64,000 bases of DNA from Terriglobia bacterium (GCA_963758435.1 CAVWVN010000010.1:3227-67226), one strand, 5' to 3'; counted from the first letter of the stretch, positions 2,201-23,090 are shown. The notes: generated from the sequence alone by a model not told the origin. Program-made: numbers and translations.

Positions 2201-2262
2201 TGGCGGAGAGGGAGGGATTTGAACCCCCGATACCCGTTAAGGTATGTCCGCTTTCGAGGCGG
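2201..2262 (-). pseudogene. 3' half of a split tRNA-Ser(CGA) gene: anticodon loop, 3' anticodon stem, long variable arm, T-arm, acceptor 3' strand, CCA
   Basis: Minus strand reads CCGCCTCGAAAGCGGACATACCTTAACGGGTATCGGGGGTTCAAATCCCTCCCTCTCCGCCA. There is no matching 5' half nearby. It pairs perfectly with the 5' half at 23051-23090. Confidence 0.85.
2251..2262. repeat. 12-bp direct repeat (att core), left copy: plus-strand CTTTCGAGGCGG
   Basis: Identical 12-mer at 23051-23062. Flanking bases differ on both sides of both copies. Confidence 0.8.
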
Positions 2263-2310
2263 CCCGTAATCCGTCGATAAACCATTCTACGTCAATGGCT
2301 TAGAGTTTTG

Positions 2311-2330
2311 AAGGGTGCAGTAAGGGTGCA
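2311..2330 (+). promoter_or_regulatory. tandem AAGGGTGCA repeats between the att junction and int (candidate integrase arm-type sites)
   Basis: AAGGGTGCA at 2311-2319 and 2322-2330. A related AGGGTGCAAT inverted pair lies at 21864-21904 next to a tRNA-Asp-like relic. Confidence 0.3.
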
Positions 2331-2488
2331 AATAAGAAACTCGCAGCCATTTTTCGTCAGGGATTTTCTCGAAAGCAACTGCCGACTTCGCCCGCGGGGC
2401 GCCGCTTTCGGCTGTGTGACAGCTCTTGGTCGCGCGTTTGCGCGAAATCGAAAGCTGAACAACAATTCCAGCGCAGAGAGCAGGTTTC

Positions 2489-3697
2489 ATGGCACGCGGA
2501 CGTGCGCGTTATCAACGAGGCCGGGTCGTCGCTACCAAGGGCGGCGGCTGGGAGATCCACTACAACGTCTACTTGACCGATCCCACAACCGGCAAACCAA
2601 AGCGACATCACCGCAGTCGGGTCGTGGGCTATAAGCCGAAGATGCACCGGGCCGACGCAGAGAAGATCTTGGCCGCTGAACTGGCTGCCATCAACGGCGG
2701 TCCAGTCACCCGAGCGGCAGACGGGACAATCACATTTGGCAATTGGATGCGGAATTTCTACATCCCCATGCGCGGTGCCAACTGGCGCGACGCGACGCGA
2801 CGCACCAACCTCGACTACCTCACCAGCCATGTCTATCCAATCCTCGAACACGTCGCGCTCAAAGACGTCACCAAGTTTCAGGTGCAGATGCTACTCAACC
2901 GGCTGGCCGCGGAAGAATACTCGTACACGGTTGTTTATCATGTGCGCGACCTGATCAAAGCGGCCTTGGCCGAGGCCTTGGACCAAGAGGTCCTAGAGCG
3001 AAACGTCGCGCGCAAGACTGTCATTCCCGAGATAGAGGAGTCCGACAAGCCGGTTCTCCCCGTCGAAATGTACGCCAAGCTTCTGGCCGGTCTTGACGGT
3101 ATCCGTGACCGCGCCATCTTTCTGATTGCATGTTTTTGCGCCTTGCGACCGAGCGAGCTCTTCGGCCTGACCTGGGGATGCTACACCGGCAATGTATTCA
3201 CCATCGTGAATACCGCGTGGCGGGGTCGGCTGCAGCGCAAGAAAATCAAACGCAAGAACCGCTACGGGCGCACCAATTACAGGCTGGTCGCAATCCCCCA
3301 AGCCGTGCGCAAGGTGATCGACTTGTGGAGGGCGAGGTGCCCGAACCCGGACGCCAATGCCCTCATGTTCCCTGGGATGCAAGCGCGTGCGCGAAAGCCA
3401 CTGGCGACGCCGATCCATTCGGACAATTGGCTGCGCTTGCGCCTGTACCCGGTCGCGAAGACACTCGGAATGGGATTTCACCCTACTTTTCAGGTCCTCC
3501 GGAGGAGCTTCTCCACGCATGGCAAGACAGAAGCACACCCAACTGAGATGCAGGCCCAACTCGGACACAGCGACATTCGCACCACCCTGAACATCTATAC
3601 GCAGATTACGGACCCGGAAGTAGCCAGAATGGTGAACCAGGTCACCAACCGCATACTTGGCTTGGGTGAGGAGGTTGAGCCGGGCTCGGTTCAGTGA
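2489..3697 (+). CDS. int: tyrosine-type site-specific integrase
   Basis: 402 aa. The C-terminal catalytic region has ALRPSELFGL, HPTFQVLRRSF and LGHSDIRTTLNIYTQ (R...H-x-x-R...Y pattern). It lies adjacent to the att junction. Confidence 0.9.
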   Translation: MARGRARYQRGRVVATKGGGWEIHYNVYLTDPTTGKPKRHHRSRVVGYKPKMHRADAEKILAAELAAINGGPVTRAADGTITFGNWMRNFYIPMRGANWRDATRRTNLDYLTSHVYPILEHVALKDVTKFQVQMLLNRLAAEEYSYTVVYHVRDLIKAALAEALDQEVLERNVARKTVIPEIEESDKPVLPVEMYAKLLAGLDGIRDRAIFLIACFCALRPSELFGLTWGCYTGNVFTIVNTAWRGRLQRKKIKRKNRYGRTNYRLVAIPQAVRKVIDLWRARCPNPDANALMFPGMQARARKPLATPIHSDNWLRLRLYPVAKTLGMGFHPTFQVLRRSFSTHGKTEAHPTEMQAQLGHSDIRTTLNIYTQITDPEVARMVNQVTNRILGLGEEVEPGSVQ

Positions 3698-3760
3698 GAT
3701 GGCCGGGAAATTCGAAGCCCAGAGCTCCCCTGATAAAATAAGAATGAAACTGGTGGGTGC

Positions 3761-3850
3761 GGAGAGATGGCCGAGTGGCTGAAGGCGCGCGCCTCGAAAG
3801 CGTGTATACCTTTACGGGTATCGGGGGTTCGAATCCCTCTCTCTCCGCCA
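3761..3850 (+). tRNA. tRNA-Ser (anticodon CGA), intact, island-borne
   Basis: GGAGAGA/TCTCTCC acceptor, GCC/GGC D-stem, CGCGC-CTCGAAA-GCGTG anticodon arm, ATACC/GGTAT variable arm, GGGGG-TTCGAAT-CCCTC T-arm, encoded CCA. Folded by hand. Confidence 0.9.
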
Positions 3851-3920
3851 GACTTTAAGCCAGGGCTGACGCCGTCGTGCAAGCAGGGAAGTGCGCTTCC
3901 ATCAGGTGTCCCTGCCATCG

Positions 3921-3995
3921 TCGGCAGCCGAAACCGGTTCGGTTAGAACGCTGCCCTGTCACCGACTTCCCGACATCGATCGGGTATTCGTTGTT
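3921..3995 (+). pseudogene. decayed tRNA-Asp(GTC)-like sequence (relic A)
   Basis: GGTTCGGTTAGAACGCTGCCCTGTCACCGAC resembles a tRNA-Asp D-arm plus anticodon arm. The downstream T-arm is unrecognisable and no cloverleaf forms. Confidence 0.35.
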
Positions 3996-4045
3996 TCCTC
4001 GCAGAGCACACCTTTAGCCCGCCAATTCTCTCTTACATTCGTCAC

Positions 4046-4120
4046 GGGCCGCTTCACTCAAAATTAGAACGCCTGCCTATCACGCAGGAGGCCGCGGGTT
4101 CGAGTCCAGTCGCTCCCGCC
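4046..4120 (+). pseudogene. decayed tRNA-Asp-like gene (relic B) with loop CTATCAC (anticodon ATC)
   Basis: TTAGAACGCCTGCCTATCACGCAGGAGGCCGCGGGTTCGAGTCCAGTCGCTCCCGCC matches tRNA-Asp closely. However, the 5' strand GGGCCGC cannot pair with CGCTCCC and the T-stem has a mismatch. Confidence 0.5.
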
Positions 4121-4127
4121 GAGTCTC

Positions 4128-4400
4128 GTGGGCCGCCGCAACCATGAGGCGAATGACCTAGAATATCGAACGGGAGGAGAATGCGTGCTTCGTCGGCGTC
4201 CCGTGCGCGTGCTGGTCGCATTAAGTGGCGTTGTTCTCGTCACATATGTCGGCTATCGCGTAGTTCCCGTGAACGCCACAACCGTCGGGTTCGCCTACTT
4301 GCTCCTGATCCTGATTGTCGCCAGCACCTCCGGATTTCTTGAGGCGGCCCTGTCCTCGTTACCTGCCACGCTCCTGTTCAACTTCTTCTTCCTGCCCGGA
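4128..4400 (+). pseudogene. N-terminal DUF4118-type membrane domain fragment of a sensor histidine kinase (truncated)
   Basis: VNATTVGFAYLLLILIVASTSGFLEAALSSLPATLLFNFFFLPG fits the DUF4118 pattern. The ORF then runs into unrelated sequence and stops at 4481, with no kinase core. Confidence 0.5.
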
Positions 4401-4486
4401 GTCCGGATCGGGCTTATAATTTCACAACGCTATATCGTCCTCCTTCGCCCGAACTACATCGGCGTGGACACGAGCAGCTGAGGTAA

Positions 4487-6406
4487 ATGGAATTGCCGAT
4501 CTGGTCGATACACGAAGTTAGGTGCCAGCACTATTTTGCTGCTATTGCTATGTACTTTGCTCTCGCCGCATCAGCTGTCTGCGGTGAGCCATTGCGTCCG
4601 ATCAAAGCAAATTCGAACCACAGTCCATCTGGGGTTCTGCGCGACGGTGTTCTCAGGATTGCGCTTGAAATTGCACGCGGAGAATGGCATCCGGAAGCTG
4701 ACGACGGTATGGCACTCGCCGTATACGCATTTGGTGAAGTTGGACACCCGCTGCAAAATCCGGGCCCACTCATCCGCGTGCCGCAAGGTACAGAGATCCG
4801 TGCTTCCTTGCGGAACACGCTTGCCGTACCCATCACCGTGCATGGCTTACGCAGTTCAAGCGGTGATGTGGGCTTGCGTATCTCGCCTGGAGCGGTAGAG
4901 CAGGTCGCCTTCAAAGCGACAACACCGGGTCTCTATTTCTATTGGGGTGCATCCGAAGTTGACGACCTTAAGCTCCGTAACGGCATTGACTCAGAGTTGA
5001 CCGGTGCTTTTGTGGTCGACCCACCGAATACAAGCCCTCGTGACGAAATTTTCCTGATGGAGATGATGTCGGAGCGCCCCGGTCCAAGTGCAAGGCAAAC
5101 GCTGGCCACCGTTAATGGCAAGTCCTGGCCCTACACCCAACGATTTTCATACGCCGTGGGCGACTTGGTGCGCTGGCGATGGATCAACGCTACCAACGAG
5201 CCGCATGCGCTGCACCTGCATGGCTTCTACTACAACATTGACGCCTTCAATCGCGGCGGACGAGTGGAGAATTACCCGGCAGATTCACGCCCCACAGTTG
5301 TAACCCAGCGCATCGCTCAGGGAGAGACGTTCGACATGAGCTGGACACCTGCTCGGTCCGGGAACTGGCTTTTCCACTGCCATATGTTTCAACACATGAT
5401 TCGTCCAATCGTGCCGAAAGTACCCGGCCTCGTGATGACGGCGGGCGTCACGCACGCAGACGAACATATGACGGAGCACGAAGTCCCCGGAATGGGACAG
5501 ATGGTGTTGGGCATAACTGTGCCGGGAAATTCAAATGCGGGAACTAGTCCCGCTTGGCATGCCGATCGCAAGATTCAACTAGAGATCGAGGAACGGAGTG
5601 GCGCGCCACGTTACTTGCTTCGCCTGCACGATGATGCAGAATCCAGAAATGTCTCCACAGAGTCTGAGATGGCCAGATCCGGGTTGATTGGTCCTCCAAT
5701 TGTGCTCACGCGCAGCCAACCCGTGGAAATTGAGGTAGTAAACAAACTGAAAGATCCAACTGCGATTCATTGGCATGGAATCGAGCTCGAGAGCTATTAC
5801 GACGGAGTGCCCGGATGGACGGGTTCGGGCAGTCAGATCACGCCTCCGATTGGGCCAGGAACATCGTTTGTTGCTCGAATGGCGCCTCCTCGTGCTGGCA
5901 CCTTCATCTATCACACGCACTGGCACGATCCGTCGCAGCTCACCAATGGCCTCTACGGGCCTTTGATCGTGTTGCCGCCAGGAGAAAAGTTTGACCCCTC
6001 ATTAGACCTCACGTTTCTGTTCAGCATCGGCGACTTTGGCGCATTGCAAGAAATGGCACTGATCAATGGAACGCCACAAAGCAAAACACTCCAATTGCAG
6101 ACAGGTAAGAATTACCGCTTTCGATTCATCAACATCTCGACGAACAATCAGGGAATGCAAGTGTCACTTCACGGCACAAATGGTCCCGTAGAGTGGCTGA
6201 ATATTGCGAAGGATGGCGCTGACCTACCGGCGCAAGCTGTGTATACAACCAAAGCGCAATTGACGATTACGGTAGGCGAAACTTACGACGTTCGGTTCTC
6301 AACGTCTACGCAGCAGGATTTGTTGCTCGACTTGCTTCTACCCGCCCAGAAAATCCACACGACACAAACGCTTTCTTTCGCGGCGTCCCCGTCTAATCCG
6401 AAGTAG
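4487..6406 (+). CDS. multicopper oxidase family protein (secreted)
   Basis: Copper-ligand motifs HALHLHGFYY, HCHMFQH, IHWHGIE and YHTHWHD. The true start may be the internal Met at about 4550 (MYFALAASAVCG signal-like). Confidence 0.85.
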   Translation: MELPIWSIHEVRCQHYFAAIAMYFALAASAVCGEPLRPIKANSNHSPSGVLRDGVLRIALEIARGEWHPEADDGMALAVYAFGEVGHPLQNPGPLIRVPQGTEIRASLRNTLAVPITVHGLRSSSGDVGLRISPGAVEQVAFKATTPGLYFYWGASEVDDLKLRNGIDSELTGAFVVDPPNTSPRDEIFLMEMMSERPGPSARQTLATVNGKSWPYTQRFSYAVGDLVRWRWINATNEPHALHLHGFYYNIDAFNRGGRVENYPADSRPTVVTQRIAQGETFDMSWTPARSGNWLFHCHMFQHMIRPIVPKVPGLVMTAGVTHADEHMTEHEVPGMGQMVLGITVPGNSNAGTSPAWHADRKIQLEIEERSGAPRYLLRLHDDAESRNVSTESEMARSGLIGPPIVLTRSQPVEIEVVNKLKDPTAIHWHGIELESYYDGVPGWTGSGSQITPPIGPGTSFVARMAPPRAGTFIYHTHWHDPSQLTNGLYGPLIVLPPGEKFDPSLDLTFLFSIGDFGALQEMALINGTPQSKTLQLQTGKNYRFRFINISTNNQGMQVSLHGTNGPVEWLNIAKDGADLPAQAVYTTKAQLTITVGETYDVRFSTSTQQDLLLDLLLPAQKIHTTQTLSFAASPSNPK

Positions 6407-6451
6407 GTCGTTGCTTTGCGGCGGCAACGCTCTGAAGCTCCGTAAGCTGGC

Positions 6452-7459
6452 CTAGTACACGTCTAAGTCTTTTCCAATTACGAATTTTCCCGAATATTGC
6501 GAGCCGATCTCTTTCTGAAGCATTTCCGGTGAAGCGTAGAGAGCATCCGCACCACCTTTGGGCGGAAGAAGCCGGGGAGGCGCAATCCCCGGCGGAAAGC
6601 TAACGGTGTGGTAGATAACGAGCAGCTTCGGCTTGGCCTTGTTCGCCAACTCCGCGAGCTGTCCGGTCGTCGTATGGTATTTCGCTACGAACGACTGGAT
6701 GCTTTCGGGCATCTTGGCCAGCAACTCCACAGGTTGCGCTTCGTGGATCAGTACGTCACAGCCGCTGCAGGCGTTGATCGTTGCCTCAACCGGATTTGTG
6801 TCGCCTGAGATCACAATACTGCGATCCGGCGTATCGAAACGATAGCCATAACTCTCCATCGCATGTTTCGTCGCAAATGCCGTGACGGTGACCTTTTCGT
6901 CCTTGTAGATGACTCCCGGTTTTACTTCGTGGGCGTTCACTTTGGCCCCATCAGGAAAGCGGCGCTGGTTTCCGTCAGGATTCGTACGCGTCTCGATGTC
7001 GACGCGATACGCCTCCAAAATGTGCTCGGTCATCGATCGCATTCCGGGCGGACCGTATACTTCCAGCGGGACCGTCCGTCCCGATGTCCATCCAGTCAGG
7101 ATTAGGTCAGAATAGCCAGCCGTGTGATCGGAATGGAGGTGGGTCACAAAGGCCACCTTCAGATTGCCGGGTTCGACTGCCGGAATCTTTCTGTTGAGAG
7201 CAGCGGACTCTGCTCTGCGCACAACGCCTGGTCCAAAATCAATAAGGTAAGCGTGATCGTCAACAACGATAGCGGTTGCCGGGCCGGAACGATCGGGATC
7301 GGGAACTGGCGTGCCGGTCCCGAGGAGCACTACTCTGGTTCGGGCTGCATGCTGGCTGGGCGACTCGCTGGTCGCCTGTTGGGCTGCAGCGGTTACCGTC
7401 ATCAATATCGAAAGAAAAAATACAAACACAATGCGCCAGCATTCCATGAGGCCCCCCAA
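6452..7459 (-). CDS. MBL-fold metallo-hydrolase (RNase Z/beta-lactamase superfamily), signal peptide
   Basis: HLHSDHTAG motif, downstream H/D ligands, and a hydrophobic N-terminus ending AAAQQ. Confidence 0.85.
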   Translation of the reverse strand: MGGLMECWRIVFVFFLSILMTVTAAAQQATSESPSQHAARTRVVLLGTGTPVPDPDRSGPATAIVVDDHAYLIDFGPGVVRRAESAALNRKIPAVEPGNLKVAFVTHLHSDHTAGYSDLILTGWTSGRTVPLEVYGPPGMRSMTEHILEAYRVDIETRTNPDGNQRRFPDGAKVNAHEVKPGVIYKDEKVTVTAFATKHAMESYGYRFDTPDRSIVISGDTNPVEATINACSGCDVLIHEAQPVELLAKMPESIQSFVAKYHTTTGQLAELANKAKPKLLVIYHTVSFPPGIAPPRLLPPKGGADALYASPEMLQKEIGSQYSGKFVIGKDLDVY

Positions 7460-7794
7460 CAGAACTTGGATGTAAAGTGCACACTATAACTCGTGATCAT
7501 ACCGCATGCGCAAGTGAGGGCGGTTCGGGAGCAATCATTGTGATTGTGACGAAGGCGAAAACAGCCGCGTGAATTGCTTTCCGGCGGCAATGCTACTTGA
7601 GATGCGACGACTCCCCTCTCGCGATAACTTCCTGTTTGCCGACAATTCGGGAGCTATCGCAGGAGTGCCTCGATCGAGCCGAAAAGCTGAGCGCGTCACA
7701 GGGCCAGATAATCGCATTCCATTTAGGAAGCTAATCCATTGACGCGCATATCCCCCGCTCCTAACATGGCAGGGCAAGGGTTCGCGCCAGCCCA

Positions 7795-10500
7795 ATGATC
7801 GGTCAAGTCATCTCGCACTATCGTGTCATCGAGAAGCTCGGTGGCGGCGGTATGGGTGTGGTCTATAAGGCTGAGGACACCGAACTTGGCCGCTTCATCG
7901 CCCTGAAGTTCCTGACCGATGAGTCAGCCCGAGATCCGCAGGCGTTGGAACGTTTTCGTCGTGAAGCGCGTGCTGCCTCTGCTCTCAATCATCCCAACAT
8001 TTGCACCATCTATGAGATCGGCAAACACGGGGACCAATCCTTCATTGCCATGGAGTTTCTGGAAGGGGTGACGCTCAGACACAGGATCGCCGGGAAGCCA
8101 TTAGACGTCGACACCTTGCTATCGGTCGGGATCGAGGTTGCTGACGCACTTGCTGCGGCTCATGCGAAGGGCATCGTCCACCGCGACATAAAGCCTGCAA
8201 ACATCTTTGTGATTGCTGACGGGCATGCCAAGGTGCTCGACTTCGGTTTGGCTAAGGTCGGATTAGCGGCGACGCGGATGAACGCTGCACCTGCCGCGCT
8301 CACAATGAGCGAGGAACTGCTGACCAGCCCCGGTTCGGCGATGGGAACGGCGGCGTACATGTCGCCTGAGCAAGCCCTGGGTAAGGAATTGGATTCTAGG
8401 ACCGACTTGTTTTCCTTTGGCTCAGTCTTGTATGAGATGGCGACGGGAATGCTTGCCTTTCGAGGCGACACGTCAGCTGCTGTTTTCGATGCCATCCTGC
8501 ACAAGGAACCAACCGCCCCGGTACGCCTCAATCCCAATTTGCCCCCGGGGCTTGAGCGCATTATCGACAAGTGCTTGGAGAAAGATCGGGAGCTACGTTA
8601 CCAGCACGCTGCCGACATCCGCACTGACTTGAAGCGGCTAAAGCGGGATACGGATTCCAGCCACTCGCACGGATTGAGCGATGTCATTTCAATGGGTTCC
8701 GCAGGACCAGTCATACTTGCCGAAGCGAGACGCCATAAGGGAATTCTGGCAATGACGCTGGTTGGATTGGCAGTGCTGATCGCTGGGTTAGGGATTTACT
8801 TCTCTAGACTGAGCGGACGCGGCAACGAGTGGAACGCGCAGGGTATGACGATCAGGCGAGTCACACACAGCGGGAACGCGGTTAACGTCGCCATTTCCCC
8901 TGACGGCCGCTATGTGGTCTACGCTCTACAAGAAGGGGAAAAGCAGGGCCTGAATGTTCGTCAAGTAGCTACCGGAAGCGACGTGCAGATTCTACCGCCG
9001 GATGAAGTTTTCATTTATGGTCTGACTTTTACGCCAGACGCCAACTACATTGATTTTGTCCGATCCGAGAAAAACAATCAAGCTAGCACTTTTCTTTATC
9101 GAATGCCCACGCTGGGAGGAACACCGCGTCTCGTGATGCAGGGAGGAATCGACTTTTCAAACAGCTATTCTCCGGACGGCGCTCAGTTCGCTTTCTTACG
9201 GGTAGGCGGTGAAGGAATTGAACTATTAATTGCAAAGGCTGATGGAAGTAACCAACGGGTGCTCGCTACGCGTCCTTACCTTGACGGGTTTACTTGGGGT
9301 ACAGCGTGGTCCCCCGACGGCAAAACGATTGTCTTCTCAACTGTGGAATCGAAGAAAAGCGTTCGTTCGGTGCTCTGGGCAGTCTCGGTCGCCGATGGAT
9401 CGGTGCGTGAAATCTACTCTACGCCCAACTCTATCGGTCGTCCGCACTGGCTGCCGGATGGAAGTGGCCTTCTGGCGTCGATTGGCAACATTGATCCGCC
9501 CTTTGGCGGGCAACTCTGGTTCATTTCTTTTCCAAAGGGACAAGCAAGGCGTCTTACGAATGATTTGATGGATTACCAACCCTGGTCCCTGGATCTCACT
9601 CAGGACGGCAGGACTCTAGTCGACACCGTGCGGACGCGAGTCTCGGATCTGTGGATAGCGCCGGCCGATGATACCACCAAGGCCAAGCAGGTTACACGAA
9701 ATGACCATGCTGTTGGACGATTCTCCTGGACGCCTGACGGTCGGATCGTCTTCGCAAGCGGCGAGGGCAATCTGTCTGTTCTAAATCCCGATGGGAATGC
9801 GCGTGCCCTACTCATGCCCAACGACCATGCAATCCTGGACCCATCGATTTGTGGCGATGGACGCTATGTTGTCTACTCCGCCTACCTGGAACAAAAGCTT
9901 GGCATCTGGCGGATGGATGCCGATGGTTCCAACCACATCCGCATCGCGGACGAGACAGTCGCGACGTCCCCAAAATGTTCTCCGGATGGCAAGTGGGTGA
10001 TCTATTTAGGGGGTGGTTCCTTTACTCCGATGCGTGTGGCGATCACGGGCGAAAAGCCTCCAGAACCGATTGCGCAGAGCCCGGCGGTTTGGATTGGCGA
10101 TGTTCTCGCGTTCTCGCCAGACGGCAAGCGGATCGCATATCTTGCCGTTCCGGAGTCTTCCGTCGTTAACCCTAGTTCGCCCTCTGGATCACAACCAAAT
10201 AGGCTAATGGTAATTGCCTTCGATGGCGGTACCCTTTTGCATCAGTTTGATTGGCCCGGCGACGCGTCAGCCGGGGAGCCCCGCTGGGCACCAGCCGGTG
10301 AGGCAATTGACTATGTACTGATCCGGAACGGCGTCTCCAACATCTGGCGACAGAAGCTGGCTGGCGGAACGCCGAAGCAAATTACAAATTTCGAGTCGGG
10401 ACAGATCTTCGACTTCGAGTGGACGCGTGACGGCAAGCAACTCGCGTTGACCCGAGGCAGCGAGAGCAGCGACGTCATCCTGATCAGTAATTTTCGGTGA
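7795..10500 (+). CDS. Ser/Thr protein kinase fused to TM segment and TolB-like (PD40) beta-propeller repeats
   Basis: [11 protein letters not shown]...[21 protein letters not shown] and SPEQ kinase motifs. The C-terminal half has repeated SPDG/TPDG propeller blades. Confidence 0.9.
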
Positions 10501-10808: not shown

Positions 10809-11859
10809 ATGGTCCAATCGGGTGCGCACAAGAACGAATGCCTGAGGATTCTGTTCTGTCTAATCGCCTGCGCCTTATTGTTGACCGCGTCTCCTCCACC
10901 TGCAGCGGCACAGTTCAAGGCTTGGGTCATGGCCAAGCTCCCCGACACGCCTGAGGGTCTGGGAGTCGATTCGCATGGCAACCTCTACGCGACCCTGATG
11001 CATATTGGAGAAGTCGTCATGCTCAAGGATGACGGCAGCTACGATCACATCGCGTGGGTGCCGTCGAAGGAAGAAAGCGAAAATGGAGACCTGATCGGAC
11101 TGGATCTTGACTATGCTGGCAACATTTACGTCGCATACACGGGCCATTCGAAACATGACTTTAGGAAGGACTTGGCAGATCCAATCCATCCCGCTTGCCG
11201 GGACGCGACGGTGACCCAATCTGGCGTTTATAAGATCGACGCTAAAACCCGAAAGGTAACGCCCCTCGCGACAAAAGCGGAGGGTTGGCCATTTTGCTAT
11301 CCCGACGATGTTGCGATCGACTCCGAGCGGCAACGTGTACATGACGGATCTCACGTACTCCGGAATTTGGAAAATCTCTCCCGATGGGAAAAAGGTGGAC
11401 CTGTGGTCGGCACATCCCCTCCTTAATTGGTTTTCTAAGCCCTATTCGGGATTCCCCCTAGGCGTCAATGATCTCGTGCTCGATAAGCAAGAGAAGAACA
11501 TCTATGCCGTGACCGACGGCGATCCCTTGGTACTCAGGATCCCGATTAAAGATGATGGAACGGCCGGTGAACCTGTGCCATTGCCTTACGGATTCTCAGC
11601 ATTCGATGGGATCGAGTTGGACGACAAAGGCAACATCTACGTATCGGAGATTTTGCTCAACCAGATCTGGGTCCTTTCGCCCAACGGTTCGCAGCGCATC
11701 CTGATAGCCACTAAGCAGAACGCGCCGCTGGACAACAACACTAGCCTGGTCTTGAAAGGAGATGTTCTTTGTACGGCCAACCTTGGCTTCACACACGCGA
11801 AACCCGAGGAAGCAGACCGGACAGTGGTCTGCATGAAGGGTTTCCCCCTGCCGAAATAG
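10809..11859 (+). pseudogene. SMP-30/gluconolactonase/strictosidine-synthase-like beta-propeller gene with a 1-nt frameshift near 11328
   Basis: ORF 10809..11426 (signal peptide...PDDVAIDSE) continues in ORF 11308..11859 (GNVYMTDLTYSGIWKISPDGK...). The propeller motif is split between the two frames. Confidence 0.7.
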
Positions 11860-14856: not shown

Positions 14857-14950
14857 GAAGTCTTAGTGCTGTATCTGAAGCGCCCCTTCACAGCTCATCG
14901 GAACGATAAATCTTCACTCGTGGGCGCTTCAGATACAGCACTAAGACTTC
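14857..14950. repeat. perfect 27-bp inverted repeat with 40-nt spacer
   Basis: GAAGTCTTAGTGCTGTATCTGAAGCGC (14857-14883) is the exact reverse complement of 14924-14950. Confidence 0.9.
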
Positions 14951-15333: not shown

Positions 15334-15696
15334 CTAAGTGCCCATCTGGTCCGGTCGCTGAAAGTAGGCTCTCGCTTCCGGTCGGAATAGAACATAGGCG
15401 GTCAGCACGAACATCAAACCGTGTGCTGCGACCTTTTGCAGCGAATCGAAGAAGCTGATGACGACGTGAAATCCGATCCAGGCTAGCACTAGCCACCGCG
15501 CCCAGTTGTTGCCTCGGAGCATAAATGCTCCACCCACAATTGCAGCAACCTCGATGATCTCGATTAGGAGGTCGTCGCGGTGAAAACCATGCCCGCCGAA
15601 GTCGGGGTAGAGGTGGTAGGCAAAACCAACAGTGCCTACCGTGACATAGATGCATGCGAGGATGGTTACAGAAACGGGACGCTTATTTGCATTCAC
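15334..15696 (-). CDS. small integral membrane protein (hypothetical)
   Basis: Hydrophobic helices (VTILACIYVTVGTVGFAY..., IIEVAAIVGGAFML, WLVLAWIGFHVVISFF). The GTG at 15696 after GGAG avoids overlap with the upstream VOC gene. The start is uncertain. Confidence 0.5.
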   Translation of the reverse strand: MNANKRPVSVTILACIYVTVGTVGFAYHLYPDFGGHGFHRDDLLIEIIEVAAIVGGAFMLRGNNWARWLVLAWIGFHVVISFFDSLQKVAAHGLMFVLTAYVLFRPEARAYFQRPDQMGT

Positions 15697-15721
15697 ACGG
15701 ATGTCTCCATAGTGCGCCAGA

Positions 15722-16135: not shown

Positions 16136-16217
16136 CTAGTAAAGCTGCGCACATTTGAACAACGTGCCTAGGAAATTAGGGTAAAGAACTGCTGGCCGGC
16201 TGTATTGTAGAAAAGCG

Positions 16218-16510: not shown

Positions 16511-16513
16511 CTG

Positions 16514-16834: not shown

Positions 16835-16914
16835 GCGAGAGCGATCAAGACGGCGATTGATGCGGGATTCGCCGACCACCGGCGCCGATCACGGATTGAC
16901 GTACCTGATCATCG

Positions 16915-16963
16915 CCCCGGCTGTCACGGCAGAGGCCGCTGGTTCGAGTCCCGTCGTCCCCGC
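16915..16963 (+). pseudogene. tRNA-Asp(GTC)-like 3' half (relic D): anticodon loop to 3' end
   Basis: CCCCGGCTGTCACGGCAGAGGCCGCTGGTTCGAGTCCCGTCGTCCCCGC; no 5' half. Confidence 0.55.
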
Positions 16964-17010
16964 TATTCATTCCAAATTCCAAAAGAGTGGAACGAATCTC
17001 ACTGCACGCC

Positions 17011-17045
17011 TTTTCGTCAATTAGAAGCGTTTTCAGGTGCGCTCC
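17011..17045 (+). repeat. 35-nt conserved segment following relic D (TTTTCGTCAATTAGAAGCGTTTTCAGGTGCGCTCC)
   Basis: 34/35 identical to 21905-21939, which follows relic E. Confidence 0.8.
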
Positions 17046-17048
17046 TGT

Positions 17049-17300
17049 TCATGACTTGGTCATACTTACGCTGGTCGGAGAGTCGGCTAGGACTAAGCCG
17101 CTGGTGCGACGGACGCTGCGCGAGCCAGGATGCACTCCAGAGATCGTGGTTTTTACCCAAGCGCTTTTCGCCCCACGATACAAGGCCGCAAGAAAAGCCC
17201 CTCCGGGTCGCAACACAGATTTGAAACGAGAGAGAGTCTTTTCGATTTCACTCGCGCGAATGGCGAGGTCAAACGGTTGATAGTGGGTGGATGTGCATCG
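17049..17300 (-). pseudogene. C-terminal fragment of a class I SAM-dependent methyltransferase
   Basis: SRFKSVLRPGGAFLAALY resembles the post-motif-II region. There is no SAM-binding GxGxG part. Confidence 0.3.
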
Positions 17301-17613
17301 CGCAGTCTCCGGGTTGGCCGACAATCCGGTAAATTCGCACCAATTCAATCAACTCAAGCGCGTCTATGAAGAGTTGACGGACGAGGCGATCTCCGCACGC
17401 CGCGGCGCCGACGAATTTACTGGCGAGAGAACCAAAGCTGGAATATCTTACCCACAGCGGCAAATCGAAGCGCTTCGGGTCAGCTACACTTCTCCCCGGT
17501 ATCTTTCAAAGCGAGACGCTCCAGGAGCGAGCAGCACCGTGCAGCCAATCGAAAGAGCGACCGACGATACGGGGCCAGAGCGTCCTCAACAACGTGATTT
17601 TCGGGGCACGAGC

Positions 17614-18318
17614 TTGATAGGTCCGCGCCTCTATCTGCCGGCGACGATTCTCATAATCGTCATCGCCTTTATTGGCTTCTGGCCCACTTATTTCGGCCCC
17701 GCCCTCAAGGGCAGGGTCCACGTTCCTCCGCTTATCCATTTGCATGCCGTCATTTATGTGACATGGCTGACACTGTTCGCTACCCAGGTCACGCTGGCGG
17801 CGACGAACCGTGTCAAGCTGCACATGCAGTTGGGCCGATGGATCATGGCCTACGGCGTGGTAGTCGTCATCGCAGGCCTGATGGCGGCAGCTCAGGGCTT
17901 TGGGACAAGACTTGCAACCGAAGATGTGTTCCGTGCCCAACGATGGCTTTTCGGTGTACTGCGTGACTTGGTGTTTTTCGTGCCGTTCTTAATCGCTGGT
18001 TGGATCTATCGGGGAAAGCCAGAAATTCACAAGCGACTCATGGTCCTGGCTACCACGATCTTAGTGCTACCAGCCGTCAGTCGAATGTCCTTCCTGGGTT
18101 CGCCAGTCCCGCTGTGGAAATTCATGCTGGTATGGCCAATACCTGTCTACCTCTTGATGATTCATGATTTCTACAAGAAACGCCTCATTCATCCGGTGTA
18201 TCTGATCGGCGTGGCCACCATGCTGACTATGCGATTAATACTGCCGTTCGGAAGTTCTCACGCGTGGCAGTCGATCGCTGCCATGATTACGGCGTTCTAT
18301 CGAGCGACACTCGGCTAA
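17614..18318 (+). CDS. polytopic membrane protein (hypothetical; paralogous fragments at 22173-22334 and 22517-22924)
   Basis: At least 6 hydrophobic helices. The maximal ORF starts at 17287, but its hydrophilic lead is probably not coding. The TTG at 17614 is a guess. Confidence 0.55.
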   Translation: MIGPRLYLPATILIIVIAFIGFWPTYFGPALKGRVHVPPLIHLHAVIYVTWLTLFATQVTLAATNRVKLHMQLGRWIMAYGVVVVIAGLMAAAQGFGTRLATEDVFRAQRWLFGVLRDLVFFVPFLIAGWIYRGKPEIHKRLMVLATTILVLPAVSRMSFLGSPVPLWKFMLVWPIPVYLLMIHDFYKKRLIHPVYLIGVATMLTMRLILPFGSSHAWQSIAAMITAFYRATLG

Positions 18319-18442
18319 GGCTCAGTCTGGGCTTTCTTGCCAATGTGGTCTAACTCCCCGTAAGTCGGCTTAGTCCTAGCCCGTAATTCGCCCGCAATCG
18401 GCGGCGAGTGCCATAGACCGCTTAACTTCCTCTCCCATTGAT

Positions 18443-19093
18443 TCACAGGTGAAAGACGAGCGGTAGGTGTGGACTGAAATCCACGATCTCTTTGCGGCGA
18501 CTGCCGTCGAATCCAATTTCGAGGAGAGATTGTGGTCCTCTTTGAGTTGATAAAATTCCACTCTCGACCAATCTGTGAGACACGGTGGACTGAAGCGGTA
18601 CAGGCGTTGTGAGGGTTAGGCTCGTGATCTCTCGAATGCCCACTGCATGGTCAACGAAGTGATGTTCGCGATCAAGCCGCCGCATGAAGCTTAGGTAGAT
18701 CCACATCGGCTCCTCAAGTCCCGCTTCGCCGATATGCATCGCGAGCGGATCTGGTAGGTAGGCAGGCCGATATTCCCACCCCGGAAACGGTAACTCTTGG
18801 TCCTGAGAATCAACAGGGCGCAGGCAAATCCCGAAGGGAGAGGCCCCGCCTTCCCGACCAGACCACCGCTCCCAAAGCAGGGTGCGTCGTGGGGATTCGC
18901 TTTGAGCCTCCTTCGCATCGCTCACCCAGAGCAACTCAATCATCGCGTTCGCGAAGGCGAAGCGCCGATTCGCTGTGCCTTGTCCGGGATGTATATTTGC
19001 GGGTCCCTCACTCAAGCCAAAGCGAACAAGTTCTTCACCCTCAGGAGCGCCTGGAGCGGTGCAAAGGAATAAGTGGTCCAACTCAATATGCAT
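18443..19093 (-). CDS. glyoxalase-like (VOC superfamily, Glyoxalase_3-type) protein
   Basis: 216 aa; begins MHIELDHLFLCTAPGAPEGEELVRFGLSEG..., typical of this family. Confidence 0.7.
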   Translation of the reverse strand: MHIELDHLFLCTAPGAPEGEELVRFGLSEGPANIHPGQGTANRRFAFANAMIELLWVSDAKEAQSESPRRTLLWERWSGREGGASPFGICLRPVDSQDQELPFPGWEYRPAYLPDPLAMHIGEAGLEEPMWIYLSFMRRLDREHHFVDHAVGIREITSLTLTTPVPLQSTVSHRLVESGILSTQRGPQSLLEIGFDGSRRKEIVDFSPHLPLVFHL

Positions 19094-19354
19094 ACGAGCT
19101 AGTCTAACTGAACTCCGCTCAGCGCAGTCGATTCAGGCCTACGTGGGTGCTGTTACTACCCATACTCAAGAATCCACCCTGGCGGGTCAGGTTCGAGTCT
19201 GCCGTCCACCTTCACGCCTTGCGTTGCGGCCCAGCGATATCCTCTATCGGTCCGTACTCAGTCGCGATTTAGGGACACCTAAATATCATCTGGATGCGAG
19301 AGCAAAGCGAACTCCTTAAGAATATGCCATCGGCCAGTCTCCTTTGTGTTTCGA

Positions 19355-19403
19355 GTGCCTGTTACGGCAAAGGTCGCGCGTTCGAGTCTCCCTCTCGTCG
19401 GGA
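19355..19403 (+). pseudogene. tRNA-Asp-like 3' half (relic F), loop CTGTTAC
   Basis: GTGCCTGTTACGGCAAAGGTCGCGCGTTCGAGTCTCCCTCTCGTCGGGA. The T-arm is decayed. A further T-arm-like GGTTCGAGTC lies at about 19189. Confidence 0.4.
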
Positions 19404-19756
19404 TAACCGTCGTCGCGCCATCCTTCCAAATGACACTCTGTTCGTACCTCTTTTACACCTCTCGTTCTGTTTGCGCGAAGCCTGATGAGCGCGGCGGGGC
19501 GCGAATGAATTGCCTTGCGGCGGCAACGGCCCTGGGTTGCAGCGCCAGGCGGTGTTGGTGATCACTTCCGTATTATCGAGAATCTACTCGGAGCGCAGCA
19601 ATAGCCGCCAACCCAAGTATTTGCGTGCGACCGTGGGCAGATCTAGGTACACGGAACCTTGCGAATCGACGATTACGGGCGTACGATTCGAAGTCGGCCT
19701 ATCGCCAACTATGCGTGGGCAGATCGTTTGGTCGTTTACCGTCGACCTGGGGATCA

Positions 19757-20419
19757 ATGAAAAAGAACTTGGCATGTTCCTCAATTGGAGTGATGCTCCT
19801 CTCACTGCTGACGGCGAATATGGCAGCTGGGCAGCTGGCACCTATTTGCGTCGAGAATTCGCCCGAGCGACGAGGTGAGGTTGGATGCAGCATTATTGAA
19901 AACAAATCGCTGCCTGACGGCCTCAAGGAGCCGCTTTTTTGGCACATCGATGGCTTTGATTCCCCGGAGCGTGCCCGCACAGCAGTTGGCCCAGCAAGCG
20001 TCGCATTCGAGGCCGACGGCACGTCCTGGCTCATGACGCTTGAGTCTCAGCCCTCCAACCATCATGGTGGCCGCCATGTGGCACAGGTCGGACCTCTGCA
20101 GCTGCCACGGGCCCCGAAACTTTCGATGCAGGTCATGTCAGCGGCGCTCACGCCCGGAATGTACTCCTTGCTTCATCATCATTCCGGCGTTGAAGCGATC
20201 TATGTGATTAAAGGCGAGGCATGCTTCGAGACGCCGGCACGCGCTTTCAAGCTCCAAAAGGGCGAGACGCTCGCTCTTCCAGGCGGTACTCCGCATCGGG
20301 CCGTGGTCATCGGACCGACGCTTCGCTACGTCTTGTCGGTCATCGTCTACGACGCGGCGCAACCGCCCACAATGCGGATGGACGAAGGAACAGGGCCACG
20401 GCTCACCGCCTGCAAGTAG
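19757..20419 (+). CDS. secreted cupin-domain protein
   Basis: ATG at 19757 with signal peptide MKKNLACSSIGVMLLSLLTANMAAGQ. Cupin core HHHSGVEAIYVIKGEACFE...GETLALPGGTPHRAV. Confidence 0.7.
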   Translation: MKKNLACSSIGVMLLSLLTANMAAGQLAPICVENSPERRGEVGCSIIENKSLPDGLKEPLFWHIDGFDSPERARTAVGPASVAFEADGTSWLMTLESQPSNHHGGRHVAQVGPLQLPRAPKLSMQVMSAALTPGMYSLLHHHSGVEAIYVIKGEACFETPARAFKLQKGETLALPGGTPHRAVVIGPTLRYVLSVIVYDAAQPPTMRMDEGTGPRLTACK

Positions 20420-20684
20420 CAAATTCGGATTGTTGTACAGTGACGCTAGTGCATTCGCTATCCTGGTGGTGTTCGCGCGTTGCCGTTTATTTCTCTACAT
20501 ATTCGGTGCGAACTTTTTCGCCGCGGGACTGAGCTGTGGAAGCTACCTCGACATCCATAACGGTGCGATCGTCGCTGTGCCCTTGTTCGCATCCGCAACC
20601 GCACTCGTCTGGCGCGACGTCAGACGGCCCAGAGTGCGCGAGCGCGTAAGAACCCGTCGTATTAACTCGCTTATGTGGAGGAAC

Positions 20685-21629
20685 ATGGACTCGCATTCGA
20701 CTGGCCCGACGATAACCCGGCGTTCCCTCCTGTTGGTTGCGCCGTTAGCGTTGGCTGCGCTGCGCAGCGTCAGCGGCGCAGCGCCGCAGATCGGATTCTG
20801 TCTCGGCACATACGGCATGCGGGACCTGCCGATCGAGACGGCACTGACACTCATCGCCAGTGCCGGATATGACGGAGTCGAACTCTCGCTGATGCCGGAA
20901 TGGCAGTGCGATCCGGCGAAGATGTCGAAGGCTGACGGTGAACGGCTTCGTGCCCTGCTCCGCGAGACCCGGCTCGCTCTTCCTGCGTTGAACGATGTGC
21001 TGTTCATCACGGCCGACAGCCGCGTGCGCAATCTCGAGCGACTGAGACTCGCCGCGGACCTCGCCCACTACCTCGTGCCCAAGAGCCCGCCCGTGATCGA
21101 GACGACGCTCGGTGGCAAGACAGCGGACTGGCCTGGCTCGAGGGACTTGATCGCGGAGGAACTCCGCTCATGGACTGATCTCGCCAAACGGCACGATGTG
21201 ACGGTCTGTTTCAAGCCGCACGCCGGCCAGGCCATTCATAACTCCGCCCGCGCGCTCGAGATGCTGCGCATCGTCAACAGCCGGAGACTGAAGATCTGCT
21301 ACGACTATTGCCACATGTTCGCCGCGCCGGAGCCACTCGAAACCAGCCTCCGCACACTAGCTCCGCACATTGGATTCATCACCCTCAAGGACGCTCGCAG
21401 GACCGATACCGGCCCTGAGTTTTTGCTTCCGGGCGACGGGGATACGGATTACGCGCTCTATTTTCGACTGTTGAAGGAACTAGGATATCGGGGGTGGGTG
21501 GTTGCGGAAGTTACCTCGATGATCTGGCGCAAGCCTGGCTATGATCCTGCAGCGACTGCACGCAGAGCGTACGCGAACATCGCGCCAGCCTGGAAGGTCG
21601 CCGGTCTCGACCGCAAATCGCGCACGTAG
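20685..21629 (+). CDS. sugar phosphate isomerase/epimerase (xylose-isomerase-like TIM barrel) with Tat-type signal
   Basis: GGAGGA-N2-ATG at 20685; TRRSLLLVAPLALAAL twin-arginine signal; AGYDGVELS...KPHAGQAIHN... Confidence 0.85.
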   Translation: MDSHSTGPTITRRSLLLVAPLALAALRSVSGAAPQIGFCLGTYGMRDLPIETALTLIASAGYDGVELSLMPEWQCDPAKMSKADGERLRALLRETRLALPALNDVLFITADSRVRNLERLRLAADLAHYLVPKSPPVIETTLGGKTADWPGSRDLIAEELRSWTDLAKRHDVTVCFKPHAGQAIHNSARALEMLRIVNSRRLKICYDYCHMFAAPEPLETSLRTLAPHIGFITLKDARRTDTGPEFLLPGDGDTDYALYFRLLKELGYRGWVVAEVTSMIWRKPGYDPAATARRAYANIAPAWKVAGLDRKSRT

Positions 21630-21770
21630 GATTTCGGAACGAGGGGCAACCTTGTCCCGCGACGGCTATACTTGAAAAGCTGTAAGTGATCGGGGCACGG
21701 TTGGAGGACCTATCACAATCGCCGTCATCGCGCACGCTGCGCGGCTGTAAGTTGTTGTAAAACCGTTCAG

Positions 21771-21822
21771 GGGGCCGCTGTCGCGGCAGAAGTCGCGAGT
21801 TCGAGTCTCGTCGTCCCCGCCA
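21771..21822 (+). pseudogene. tRNA-Asp(GTC)-like 3' half (relic E), best preserved, ends in CCA
   Basis: GGGGCCGCTGTCGCGGCAGAAGTCGCGAGTTCGAGTCTCGTCGTCCCCGCCA. The T-arm GCGAG-TTCGAGT-CTCGT pairs fully. The required 5' strand GGGGACG is absent. Confidence 0.6.
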
Positions 21823-21863
21823 TTCCTTCTAAAAGGCTTGTTACGATTTCTCTGAAGCCAACG

Positions 21864-21939
21864 AGGGTGCAATAGGACACAAATCGGTGCCTTTATTGCA
21901 CCCTTTTTCGTCAATTAGAAACGTTTTCAGGTGCGCTCC
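21864..21939 (+). repeat. AGGGTGCAAT/ATTGCACCCT 10-bp inverted repeat followed by the 35-nt conserved segment
   Basis: Stem arms at 21864-21873 and 21895-21904; TTTTCGTCAATTAGAAACGTTTTCAGGTGCGCTCC at 21905-21939. Confidence 0.8.
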
Positions 21940-22172
21940 GCTGATCTCGTTGGGGTCCGCCCTGGTGGCAAATTCGTTGTTGTCGAGGGCAGGAGAAATG
22001 TATGATGCGCGAGACAGCGGTTCAAAACCGGAAATCCCGGCTAAGAGGCTTCCGTAATTGCGCACTTGATGGCCTCGTGCGCGCTGGCGGCTGCGGTGTT
22101 CGGGCGATTTCCGATCGCGGCGGCGCGGGATGTGTGGTTCTAGGCAGGCGTGGAGAGCCTCATTCTGCTCGG

Positions 22173-22334
22173 GTTGTCCAGAATCTGTTGGTGAACAAGC
22201 GCATCCATCCGGTGTATTTATATGGACTGCCGCTGCTGATGATGGGTCAACTCACGATTATGTACACGAGCTTGCACAGCCTGCCAGTGTGGATGCGCAT
22301 CGCGTACGCTATTTTCGGATATGTTTGCTTATAG
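22173..22334 (+). pseudogene. C-terminal fragment of a paralogue of membrane protein 17614..18318
   Basis: KRIHPVYLYGLPLLMMGQLTIMY... aligns with KRLIHPVYLIGVATMLTMRLILP... of the full copy. Confidence 0.5.
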
Positions 22335-22516
22335 GCCGCGGGTGAGAGCTTCTTCAACGCTGGCTGGCGAAGCTAAAGACACATACGCTAATTCTGTCAG
22401 CGGCAGATTGACTCAATAGGCCCGCGGACCGCGACGAGCGAAGATTGGAGGCACGAATGGCGCAGGTCGGGAGCGTCGCCGACGGAGCTACTTCTTCGGG
22501 CAAGACATCATCGTAA

Positions 22517-22924
22517 GGCCACTCAACGTTAGCGGTTGGGAGTTCAGGCGGGAAAGCTGCGGAGACGTGGGGGCGTTCGTTTTATTTCTTGATGTCGCTG
22601 CTGGTGATGGTGGTGGTGGCGTATGGATTCGGGCGGAAGCTCGATGAGAAATTGATTCATGCTGCGTCGCCTCGGCCGACGATCCTTTATATCCACGCGT
22701 TGTTGTTCGCGGCCTGGGTGATGTTCTACGCCGTGCAGTCGGCGCTGGTGCGGACGCGAAGGGTGAAAGTGCATAAGATGCTGGGGTGGTTTGGGCTGGC
22801 GCTGGGATCGGCAATTCCTGTTGTTGGCATTGCGACCGTGTTGGTGATGATTCGGATGGAAGTGCGACAGGGTCTGACTTTTGTTGCACCCTTCTTTCGC
22901 GATACACATCGCGATACACAATAA
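22517..22924 (+). pseudogene. N-terminal fragment of a paralogue of membrane protein 17614..18318
   Basis: FYFLMSLLVMVVVAYGFG...PTILYIHALLFAAWVMFYAVQSALVRTRRVKVHKMLG aligns with the first helices of the full copy. It is truncated after about 135 aa. Confidence 0.5.
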
Positions 22925-23050
22925 CTTTGTCTACGACGTACTTCCAATGTCTTGCAATGCCGTCCGTGCTCTTCTATGTCGTTGAAAGTACTTGTAACCC
23001 GCTAACTGTCACTGCAACGTTCTGGCGCATGCAATCGACTAGTCGACTGA

Positions 23051-23062
23051 CTTTCGAGGCGG
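23051..23062. repeat. 12-bp direct repeat (att core), right copy
   Basis: CTTTCGAGGCGG, identical to 2251-2262. Confidence 0.8.
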
Positions 23063-23090
23063 ATCGTTTCAACCACTCACGCACCTCTCC
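23051..23090 (-). pseudogene. 5' half of the split tRNA-Ser(CGA) gene: acceptor 5' strand, D-arm, anticodon 5' stem and loop
   Basis: Minus strand reads GGAGAGGTGCGTGAGTGGTTGAAACGATCCGCCTCGAAAG. It is followed by non-tRNA island DNA. Confidence 0.85.

Follow-up and report, generated by a model that had tools for sequence, protein, structure and literature searches.

The stretch of DNA analysed here, a window of 64 kb from a soil Acidobacterium (Terriglobia), contains a tRNA-Ser(CGA) gene that is interrupted in its anticodon loop by an island of 20,788 bp (2263-23050). A tyrosine integrase gene lies at the island's left end and is followed by a second, complete tRNA-Ser(CGA) gene. The two junctions and the integrase-proximal end of the island are composed of the following features:

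2201-2262, minus strand: 3' part of the host tRNA-Ser(CGA) gene, from the anticodon loop to CCA, which stops at the left junction (sequence and ARAGORN reconstruction)
2251-2262, unstranded: left 12-bp core, CTTTCGAGGCGG, which comprises the 7-nt anticodon loop plus stem nucleotides (1 nt from the 3' strand, 4 nt from the 5' strand)
2263-2488, plus strand: left arm of the element (equivalent of a P arm) with two direct GGGTGCA repeats, conserved across 28 loci and not tRNA-like
2489-3697, plus strand: tyrosine integrase, full length, 402 amino acids (Pfam Phage_integrase, Phage_int_M and SAM_3; phrog_1)
3731-3739, plus strand: extended -10-like box, TGATAAAAT, 21 nt upstream of the element tRNA (alignment of integrase-tRNA spacers)
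3761-3850, plus strand: element-borne replacement tRNA-Ser(CGA) (ARAGORN; Rfam, 55.5 bits)
23051-23062, unstranded: right 12-bp core, the second copy of CTTTCGAGGCGG
23051-23090, minus strand: 5' part of the host tRNA-Ser(CGA) gene, from the acceptor to the anticodon loop (sequence and ARAGORN reconstruction)

Joining the reverse complement of 23051-23090 to that of 2201-2250 yields a 90-nt molecule that ARAGORN recognises as tRNA-Ser(CGA) with all stems paired. Among the matches listed, this reconstructed 90-mer is 100% identical to intact tRNA genes in seven metagenome contigs, and intact genes with exactly this sequence (contigs L139 and L121) reach 55.3 bits on the Rfam model RF00005, for which the gathering score is 29. 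The attB thus overlaps a host tRNA gene, as the two halves rebuild tRNA-Ser(CGA) and intact copies stand at empty sites. The core CTTTCGAGGCGG occurs exactly twice within the window, and the chance expectation is ~0.006 per strand. Neither ARAGORN nor Rfam detected a tRNA at the left junction, at the right junction or in the joined putative attP, which would read ...GACTGA-CTTTCGAGGCGG-CCCGTAAT.... No tRNA other than that at 3761-3850 was found by ARAGORN in the whole window or by Rfam at a permissive threshold over 1500-24000, and the island contains no further core-like site with tRNA context; neither a tandem copy nor an internal second junction was found. The window island does not show the Islander-type arrangement of canonical tRNA-regenerating islands, whose target tRNA is rebuilt at one junction, with a displaced 3' piece marking the opposite end.

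The initial annotation, which was made from the sequence alone, had described this split gene and the nearby intact tRNA. Its quoted sequences and coordinates, the 12-mer, the 90-nt tRNA and the distance to the integrase were all recovered from the window, and the outcomes that it had named as fatal (a tRNA at a junction, flanks that are never contiguous in relatives, a poor covariance-model score for the joined halves, a 12-mer shared by chance) were all decided in its favour. The premise that disrupting a tRNA gene without rebuilding it, while carrying a cognate replacement, is an unusual and undescribed solution is outdated, because this is the defining behaviour of tRNA-dependent lysogeny, described and named by Guerrero-Bustamante and Hatfull (mBio 2024; PMC10865867). 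That mechanism combines a tyrosine integrase, an attB within a tRNA gene, a core of 8-17 bp, no reconstruction of the target and a phage-encoded cognate tRNA (PMC10865867).

The host flanks and the remainder of the island comprise four additional features:

1391-1897, minus strand: GNAT acetyltransferase, host flank (annotation; its start region has a homologue in contig L121)
3851-22880, unstranded: cargo, in which no phage or conjugation genes were detected
22885-22891, minus strand: inverted GGGTGCA in the right arm (motif search)
23144-23677, minus strand: tadA (tRNA adenosine deaminase), host flank, directly upstream of the tRNA and co-oriented with it (NCBIfam TadA equivalog, E = 1.5e-60)

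Empty sites exist in related contigs. The undivided anticodon region GTCCGCTTTCGAGGCGGATCGTTTCAACC, and with it an uninterrupted attB, is present in at least 120 metagenome contigs. When the window flanks were joined into a single query and compared with metagenome contigs, as the initial annotation had proposed, many contigs displayed an intact tRNA directly after tadA, with tadA identities to the window of 79% (L031), 85% (L139) and 84% (L121). In L121, a homologue of window positions 1824-2061, covering the start of the GNAT gene and its upstream sequence, is located ~1.2 kb past the intact tRNA. Both flanks therefore adjoin an intact gene in relatives. A 4.3-kb metagenome contig (L144) contains two tadA-tRNA-Ser(CGA) copies in inverted orientation, at 627-716 (minus strand) and 3594-3682 (plus strand), and is probably a palindrome created by the assembly. 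No recorded protein was an exact match to the window integrase or to tadA.

The layout of the left end is not peculiar to the window. Integrase homologues were collected at E <= 1e-20 (n = 139), 13 of them were aligned, and the alignment was scanned against one genome per GTDB species, which led to 28 loci. Except for one Binatia, all derive from metagenome-assembled genomes (MAGs) labelled Acidobacteriota, Terriglobia or Terriglobales, with integrase identities of 64-98%. Each locus represents a different species, and each contains the host 3' half, the arm, the integrase and the element tRNA (28/28). The host 3' half is located on the opposite strand ~230 nt upstream of the integrase gene, stops in the anticodon loop and is adjoined by the conserved non-tRNA arm, again in 28/28 loci. 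ARAGORN places the tRNA-Ser(CGA) on the integrase strand, 52-73 nt past the integrase gene, in every locus but L014, and detects no second tRNA-Ser(CGA) in any of the 28. L014 (11207-12451) has an insertion of ~1.2 kb between the integrase gene and the element tRNA that is unique among the loci. Alignments of the window with these loci by blastn are confined to 2201-3850, i.e. the 3' half, arm, integrase and element tRNA, at 67-95% identity. Homology ends at or shortly after 3850, and the cargo is unrelated between loci; the sequence past the host tRNA 3' end varies as well, as expected for different host chromosomes.

Two of these loci contain complete islands, of ~5.7 kb in L009 (5' half at 15480-15518) and ~10.7 kb in L013 (5' half at 11478-11516). 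Both have tadA as the next gene on the right flank, and the halves of L009 also rebuild tRNA-Ser(CGA). Further copies of the cassette are present in metagenome contigs L156-L165. A cognate element tRNA was found in the window, in 28/28 GTDB loci, in the distant relatives L151-L153 described below, and in L156, L158, L160, L161 and L163. The claim that integration splits the tRNA gene, leaves it unrebuilt and brings a cognate replacement is therefore supported by the window, the 28 loci, these contigs and a phage-like relative. Two side observations concern individual loci. The MAG that carries L012 (DATKAP010000155.1) is labelled Candidatus Binatia, a different phylum, and its cassette is 87.5% identical to that of the window, which points either to transfer across phyla or to a mistake in binning or labelling. 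In L009 (14253-15251) and L013 (10410-11246), the gene adjacent to the right arm has a HEPN-type domain (weakly Swt1-like HEPN in L009, DUF4145 in L013) and may represent defence cargo.

The element encodes its own tyrosine integrase, the recombinase type of tRNA-dependent lysogeny. Its open reading frame begins 226 nt inside the left junction and the protein scores well against Pfam Phage_integrase PF00589 (E = 8.7e-12) and phrog_1 integrase (E = 3e-43). R220, R338, H360 and Y370, corresponding to the catalytic R, R, H and Y, are invariant in the integrase alignment. IMG/VR contains no close relative, with just two matches at 26-30% identity, and the best identities among 50,697 GenBank phage records are 24-31%, none of them from a mycobacteriophage; the integrase is thus related to those of sequenced phages at family level only, and its origin is independent. 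The GGGTGCA repeats of the left arm (2313-2319 and 2324-2330) are conserved in relatives and are candidate arm-type integrase sites; the right arm of the window has a single inverted copy, and that of L009 and L013 carries GAAGGGTGCAAAAT. The only sigma-70-like match in 2150-4150 (2312-2284, minus strand, TTCAAA-17-TAGAAT) also lies in the left arm and points out of it into the dead host 3' half; with one match found and 0.5 expected, it may be due to chance.

The junction core measures 12 bp in the window, 15 bp in L009 (CCGCTTTCGAGGCGG) and 8-17 bp across the integrase family. It spans 15-17 bp in L009, L021-L023 and L028, reaching 17 bp in L021-L023 and L028, and is reduced to CTTTCGAG in L017, L019, L020 and L024. 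The common denominator of all cores is the 7-nt anticodon loop, and no functional tRNA results at attL or attR. Integrases of this type are reportedly expected, in a view attributed to Williams in 2002, to place the overlap region in the anticodon loop, and the crossover probably occurs there in the Terriglobia family too. The anticodon loop is also the usual site in mycobacteriophages (PMC10865867).

The element tRNA starts 63 nt past the integrase stop codon and differs from the reconstructed host gene at 17/90 positions, as initially annotated; compensatory differences affect the D stem, the anticodon stem and, in the acceptor, pair 7:66. In the window and 25/28 loci, it is either identical or carries a single-nucleotide difference in the variable loop, and this constancy persists where the DNA identity of the integrase gene drops to 73-77%. 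The divergent element tRNAs of L024, L027 and L028 exhibit paired changes in the anticodon stem, the D stem or the variable arm. The element tRNA is thus near-invariant, and its variants are compensatory, which demonstrates strong purifying selection on the tRNA structure. Upstream of the tRNA, the motif CTGnTAAAAT is kept in a spacer alignment of 20 sequences that includes the distant ones and L151; the spacer is otherwise variable, with cCTGnTAAAAT ~20 nt upstream of the tRNA in all aligned loci, and L153 has the version GCTAGAAT. The near-invariance of the tRNA, its compensatory variants and the conserved -10 box lend indirect support to the idea that integrants need the element tRNA for viability or fitness.

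Every element tRNA retains the loop CTCGAAA. It is combined with one of the anticodon stems CGCGC/GCGTG, CCTGC/GCAGG, GACGC/GCGTC and CCGGT/ACCGG, but in no case with the host TCCGC/GCGGA. Because this stem differs from the target, the element tRNA is probably no substrate for the element's own integrase, and the recoded stem would confer self-immunity by keeping the integrase off the element's own tRNA. The origin of the replacement may be local. A host tRNA-Ser(GGA) in L003 (2098-2187) has a single mismatch to the element tRNA in the first 32 nt, and both have the same acceptor stem, D arm and anticodon stem (GCGTG and TCTCTCC strands), while the variable arm and T stem of the element tRNA are closer to host tRNA-Ser(CGA). 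Thus, the replacement may be a Ser(GGA)/Ser(CGA) chimera of its own lineage and not a foreign gene, and the term 'xenologous', which had been applied to it on first annotation, is not established.

More distant relatives connect the family to phages. L151 and L152 (integrase identity 58%) contain an excisionase-like gene, the integrase and tRNA-Ser(CGA). Their host 3' half is located ~115 nt beyond the tRNA on the same strand, with the junction ...GAAACGAG/CCGCCTCGAAAGCGG..., so that, relative to the integrase gene, the attachment site has changed sides; the host gene is not rebuilt here either. L153 (integrase identity 50%) lies on a contig of 52 kb that encodes the large subunit of a terminase (phrog_979, E = 4e-42), an SNF2 helicase, an excisionase-like gene, the integrase, tRNA-Ser(CGA) and three additional tRNAs. 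It includes an attP-like site, ...TTACTGCC/CCGCCTCGAAAGCGG/CTCATAACC..., flanked by ACGGCAG repeats (in short, ...CTGCC/CCGCCTCGAAAGCGG/CTCAT...). The site consists of the 15-bp anticodon stem-loop alone with non-tRNA sequence on both sides, and looks like an unrecombined attP. The strategy is thus common, within one integrase clade, to the phage-like L153 and to islands without phage genes. At 34% integrase identity, L154/L155 (5648-7327) combine an excisionase-like gene, an integrase and arm repeats (TTTGGTACG, twice) with tRNA-Val(CAC), beyond which small phage-like genes follow. No split Val gene is present in the available L154/L155 sequence, and these loci may represent the same strategy on another tRNA.

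Several comparisons indicate recent horizontal spread of the cassette together with occasional old insertions. The cassette of L009 is 90.6% identical to the window and its tadA 72%; in L013 the corresponding values are 88.9% and 82.5%, and in L001 the cassette is 94.8% identical, with no alignable flank. Elements at least 93.5% identical to that of the window adjoin three different host tRNA variants, and hosts with the tRNA variant of the window harbour elements of 73-92% identity. Occupied and empty sites are interleaved at comparable tadA divergence. The displaced 3' half is identical to the 3' part of an intact metagenomic tRNA in 23/28 loci; it is changed in the other 5/28, and the changes in L013, L016 and L022 look damaging. 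It is the combination of a cassette conserved beyond its flanks, mixed tRNA variants, interleaved sites and mostly intact 3' halves that suggests this history.

Genes of metabolism and regulation, of a kind typical for Acidobacteria, make up the cargo of the window island. Among their products are a DUF4118 protein, a multicopper oxidase, a metallo-beta-lactamase-fold protein, a Ser/Thr kinase with PD40 repeats, a Trans_reg_C-TPR regulator, AraC-like, glyoxalase-like and cupin proteins, and a xylose-isomerase-like TIM barrel. Neither PHROG nor Pfam searches detected genes for phage structure, lysis or replication in the islands of the window, L009 and L013, and the window element is thus an island and not a temperate phage. 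Downstream of the element tRNA, 16/28 loci, including the complete L009 island, have an excisionase-like gene of 91 amino acids (HTH_17 / phrog_66) within 10 kb. The small gene that immediately precedes the integrase gene in L151 and L153 is its homologue.

The cargo also contains four direct copies (plus strand) of a ~50-nt repeat that resembles the 3' end of a class II tRNA (4072-4124, 16916-16968, 19355-19390 and 21774-21825). The same repeat occurs in L025 (11589-11641) and L001 (11554-11590), and homology between the window and L025 stops where the first copy ends. The repeat, whose best copy reads ...GCCGCTGTCGCGGCAGAAGTCGCGAGTTCGAGTCTCGTCGTCCCCGCCA, is distinct from the 3' end of Ser(CGA). 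A 43-nt repeat with TGCACCC (17003-17045 and 21897-21939, 93% identical) follows copy 2 and again copy 4. These repeats look like attachment scars of cassettes added in tandem within the island. The repeats gave no Rfam hit and matched none of the tRNAs of the examined loci, and no second integrase was found. A perfect 29-bp inverted repeat with a 36-nt spacer (14857-14950) gives rise to a spurious microRNA-like Rfam hairpin in the cargo. In L156 (11386-12752), and also in L157-L159, a second integrase and an HTH_17 gene start ~75 nt past the 3' end of the element tRNA, and in L159 (around 1080) the sequence TTACCTTAGTTATCTAG follows the element tRNA as well as the displaced host 3' half. Another element family appears to attach at the 3' end of tRNA-Ser, the element-borne copy included, which could explain why homology breaks exactly at 3850.

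Our preferred interpretation, to which we assign a probability of roughly 0.85, is that the window contains an integrative island of a Terriglobia-wide family that disrupts tRNA-Ser(CGA) and carries a replacement, by the mechanism of tRNA-dependent lysogeny. It builds on the split and unrebuilt gene, the conserved integrase-tRNA cassette, the empty sites and the purifying selection on the element tRNA. In this mechanism, the integrase would recombine two sites, one a short attP core that amounts to the 7-nt anticodon loop plus some adjoining bases of the stem, the other the anticodon loop of the tRNA-Ser(CGA) gene that the host has downstream of tadA. Because attP would carry no tRNA 3' half, integration would leave two dead halves at the ends of the island. 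The loss would be compensated by the element's own tRNA-Ser(CGA), which is encoded ~65 nt downstream of the integrase gene behind its own putative extended -10 promoter and would be expressed and aminoacylated and complement the disrupted gene. Having kept the loop on a different anticodon stem, this tRNA would be spared by the element's integrase.

Several points weigh against this interpretation, in particular for the window copy. A sigma-70 consensus scan of 2150-4150 revealed no promoter for the element tRNA, the -35 region being weak, and the tRNA-Ser(CGA) gene count for the source genome covers 64 kb only. No excisionase homologue was found in window positions 1-26000, either by tblastn or with a family hidden Markov model on six-frame fragments (best E about 1). 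The 105-nt right arm common to L009 and L013 is absent from the window, and the right core half-site of the window is degenerate (CTGAC vs CCCGC). The window copy may no longer be mobile, being either excision-defective or reliant on a factor supplied in trans, and with no excisionase-like gene and a right arm unlike that of L009 and L013, the suggestion that precise excision restores the host gene is doubtful for this copy. Finally, tRNA-Ser(CGA) may be non-essential, in which case the replacement would be a fitness aid and not a requirement. In E. coli, tRNA-Ser(CGA) is dispensable since tRNA-Ser(cmo5UGA) reads UCG, and serU (CGA) can be converted to the suppressor supD. A possible reading of UCG by Ser(UGA) means that the dependence of the host on the island, which the initial annotation had raised and which we infer here, may be a fitness effect and not lethality.

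The same observations bear on the alternative that the island arose in this way but has lost excision, so that it has become ordinary chromosome and its tRNA a permanent substitute for the native gene. Such a reading concerns the present state of the island and is compatible with the preferred origin; it is a possibility to be taken seriously, if distinctly short of even odds. The window has no excisionase-like gene, as opposed to 16/28 relatives with one within 10 kb, it has a degenerate core half-site and a right arm that bears no relation to the 105-nt one of L009 and L013; the cargo resembles ordinary acidobacterial genes, its GC content of 53-61% is near that of the flanks, and the 3' halves of L013, L016 and L022 are decaying. 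However, the integrase is full length with its catalytic residues kept, both 12-bp cores are identical, neither tRNA half shows damage and both match live genes exactly, GGGTGCA is found on the left arm as well as on the right one, and an excision factor may be available in trans. We consider it improbable that the tRNA is a mere auxiliary, used for codon supply or defence evasion by a host that reads UCG by other means, i.e. with a second Ser(CGA) or by Ser(UGA) wobble. Such a role would be in line with the E. coli precedents of serU/supD and cmo5UGA wobble, with the three extra tRNAs in L153 and with the anti-defence roles of phage tRNAs raised in the discussion of PMC10865867. Yet the carried anticodon is always that of the destroyed gene in every family member examined, even in L151 with its displaced attachment site, and such one-to-one pairing is a prediction of compensation.

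The remaining alternatives question the split itself. According to the classical rule, as set out in the Islander paper (PMC4383910), tRNA-targeting elements carry the 3' part of the gene in attP and regenerate it, and canonical anticodon-loop integrases have the 3' half in attP. Williams reportedly described the latter in 2002 as well. The initial annotation had taken regeneration as the norm; as a classical rule this stands, but it does not always apply, as tRNA-dependent lysogeny is an exception (PMC10865867). It is very improbable that the island is a canonical one and that its regenerated tRNA copy has become unrecognisable through decay, given that tRNA identity ends sharply after 8-17 bp in 28/28 loci, that the adjacent arm is conserved among elements and unrelated to tRNA, and that the L153 attP-like site comprises the stem-loop alone. 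The probability that the 12-mer is a chance match, that the assembly is chimeric or that the halves act in trans as a split tRNA is practically negligible, with ~0.006 occurrences of the 12-mer per strand expected and the same junction seen in 28 independent assemblies. Assembly of the halves in trans was rejected, as their flanks show no excess of complementarity (duplex z = -0.35) and are not conserved, being different in the window and in L009/L013.

Taken together, we tentatively propose, at a little under even odds, that the integrase-tRNA(-excisionase) cassette is a phage-escaped portable module that drives non-viral islands in many Terriglobia species and has effectively put an element allele in place of the native tRNA-Ser(CGA) in a considerable share of soil Acidobacteria. 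Its recoded stem would shield the element tRNA from the element's own integrase, and the tRNA 3' end would act as a landing pad for further integrative elements and thus for nested growth; the latter is suggested because the tRNA 3' end is exactly where homology between loci breaks off and, in L156-L159, is immediately followed by a second integrase. Integration by disruption and replacement is not peculiar to actinobacteriophages, as it is found in a major, poorly cultured soil phylum, where it is common (28/28 loci and many contigs). Island finders that require a regenerated tRNA plus a displaced fragment would miss such islands, and tRNA annotation would show a 'normal' tRNA-Ser(CGA) that is really the element allele. 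By analogy with the plasmids of PMC10865867, the attP-integrase-tRNA cassette (~1.6 kb) could serve as an integration vector for Acidobacteria.

The Terriglobia family shares several properties with canonical tRNA islands, namely a tyrosine integrase encoded next to the att site, a crossover (probable in the present case) in the symmetric anticodon stem-loop, direct repeats at the ends and variable cargo. Unlike the Terriglobia family, canonical islands regenerate the tRNA from the 3' part supplied by attP. Zhao and Williams reportedly described in 2002 a reverse-orientation element of Mesorhizobium loti that supplies the 5' part of the tRNA and a promoter and still regenerates the gene. The Terriglobia elements likewise depart from the rule with regard to the supplied part; unlike in M. 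loti, neither part is supplied at the junctions. An earlier probable case of tRNA replacement, cited as such in PMC10865867, is the Lj965 prophage of Lactobacillus johnsonii, and a similar tRNA substitution was reported in 2024 for phage-related sequences of Sinorhizobium meliloti (PMC11476347). Compared by their descriptions, these elements resemble the window island in that the tRNA is not rebuilt and a cognate tRNA is carried, but they are prophages or phage-related and belong to Firmicutes and Alphaproteobacteria.

The closest parallel is provided by the actinobacteriophages, in which tRNA-dependent lysogeny is found in several clusters and probably evolved more than once, with examples such as Fionnbharth/K4, Cluster L, Cain/K6, BrutonGaster, OneUp, Mollymur and Gaia, and in which genetics revealed that the phage tRNA is required for lysogeny (PMC10865867). 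The common features are a tyrosine integrase with arm-type sites (candidates in the present case), an attB in a tRNA gene, a short core and the lack of a functional tRNA at attL and attR; as in Gaia, the integrase gene is closely followed by the tRNA. Differences concern the phylum, Acidobacteriota, the target, which is tRNA-Ser(CGA) here and Lys, Ile2 or Leu in the actinobacteriophages, and the carrier, since the window element contains no phage genes and is known from its sequence alone. Judged at that level, it displays every hallmark of tRNA-dependent lysogeny except that of being a temperate phage, and it is of interest for its phylum, for a carrier that lacks phage genes, for the very compact and conserved cassette and for the recoded anticodon stem.

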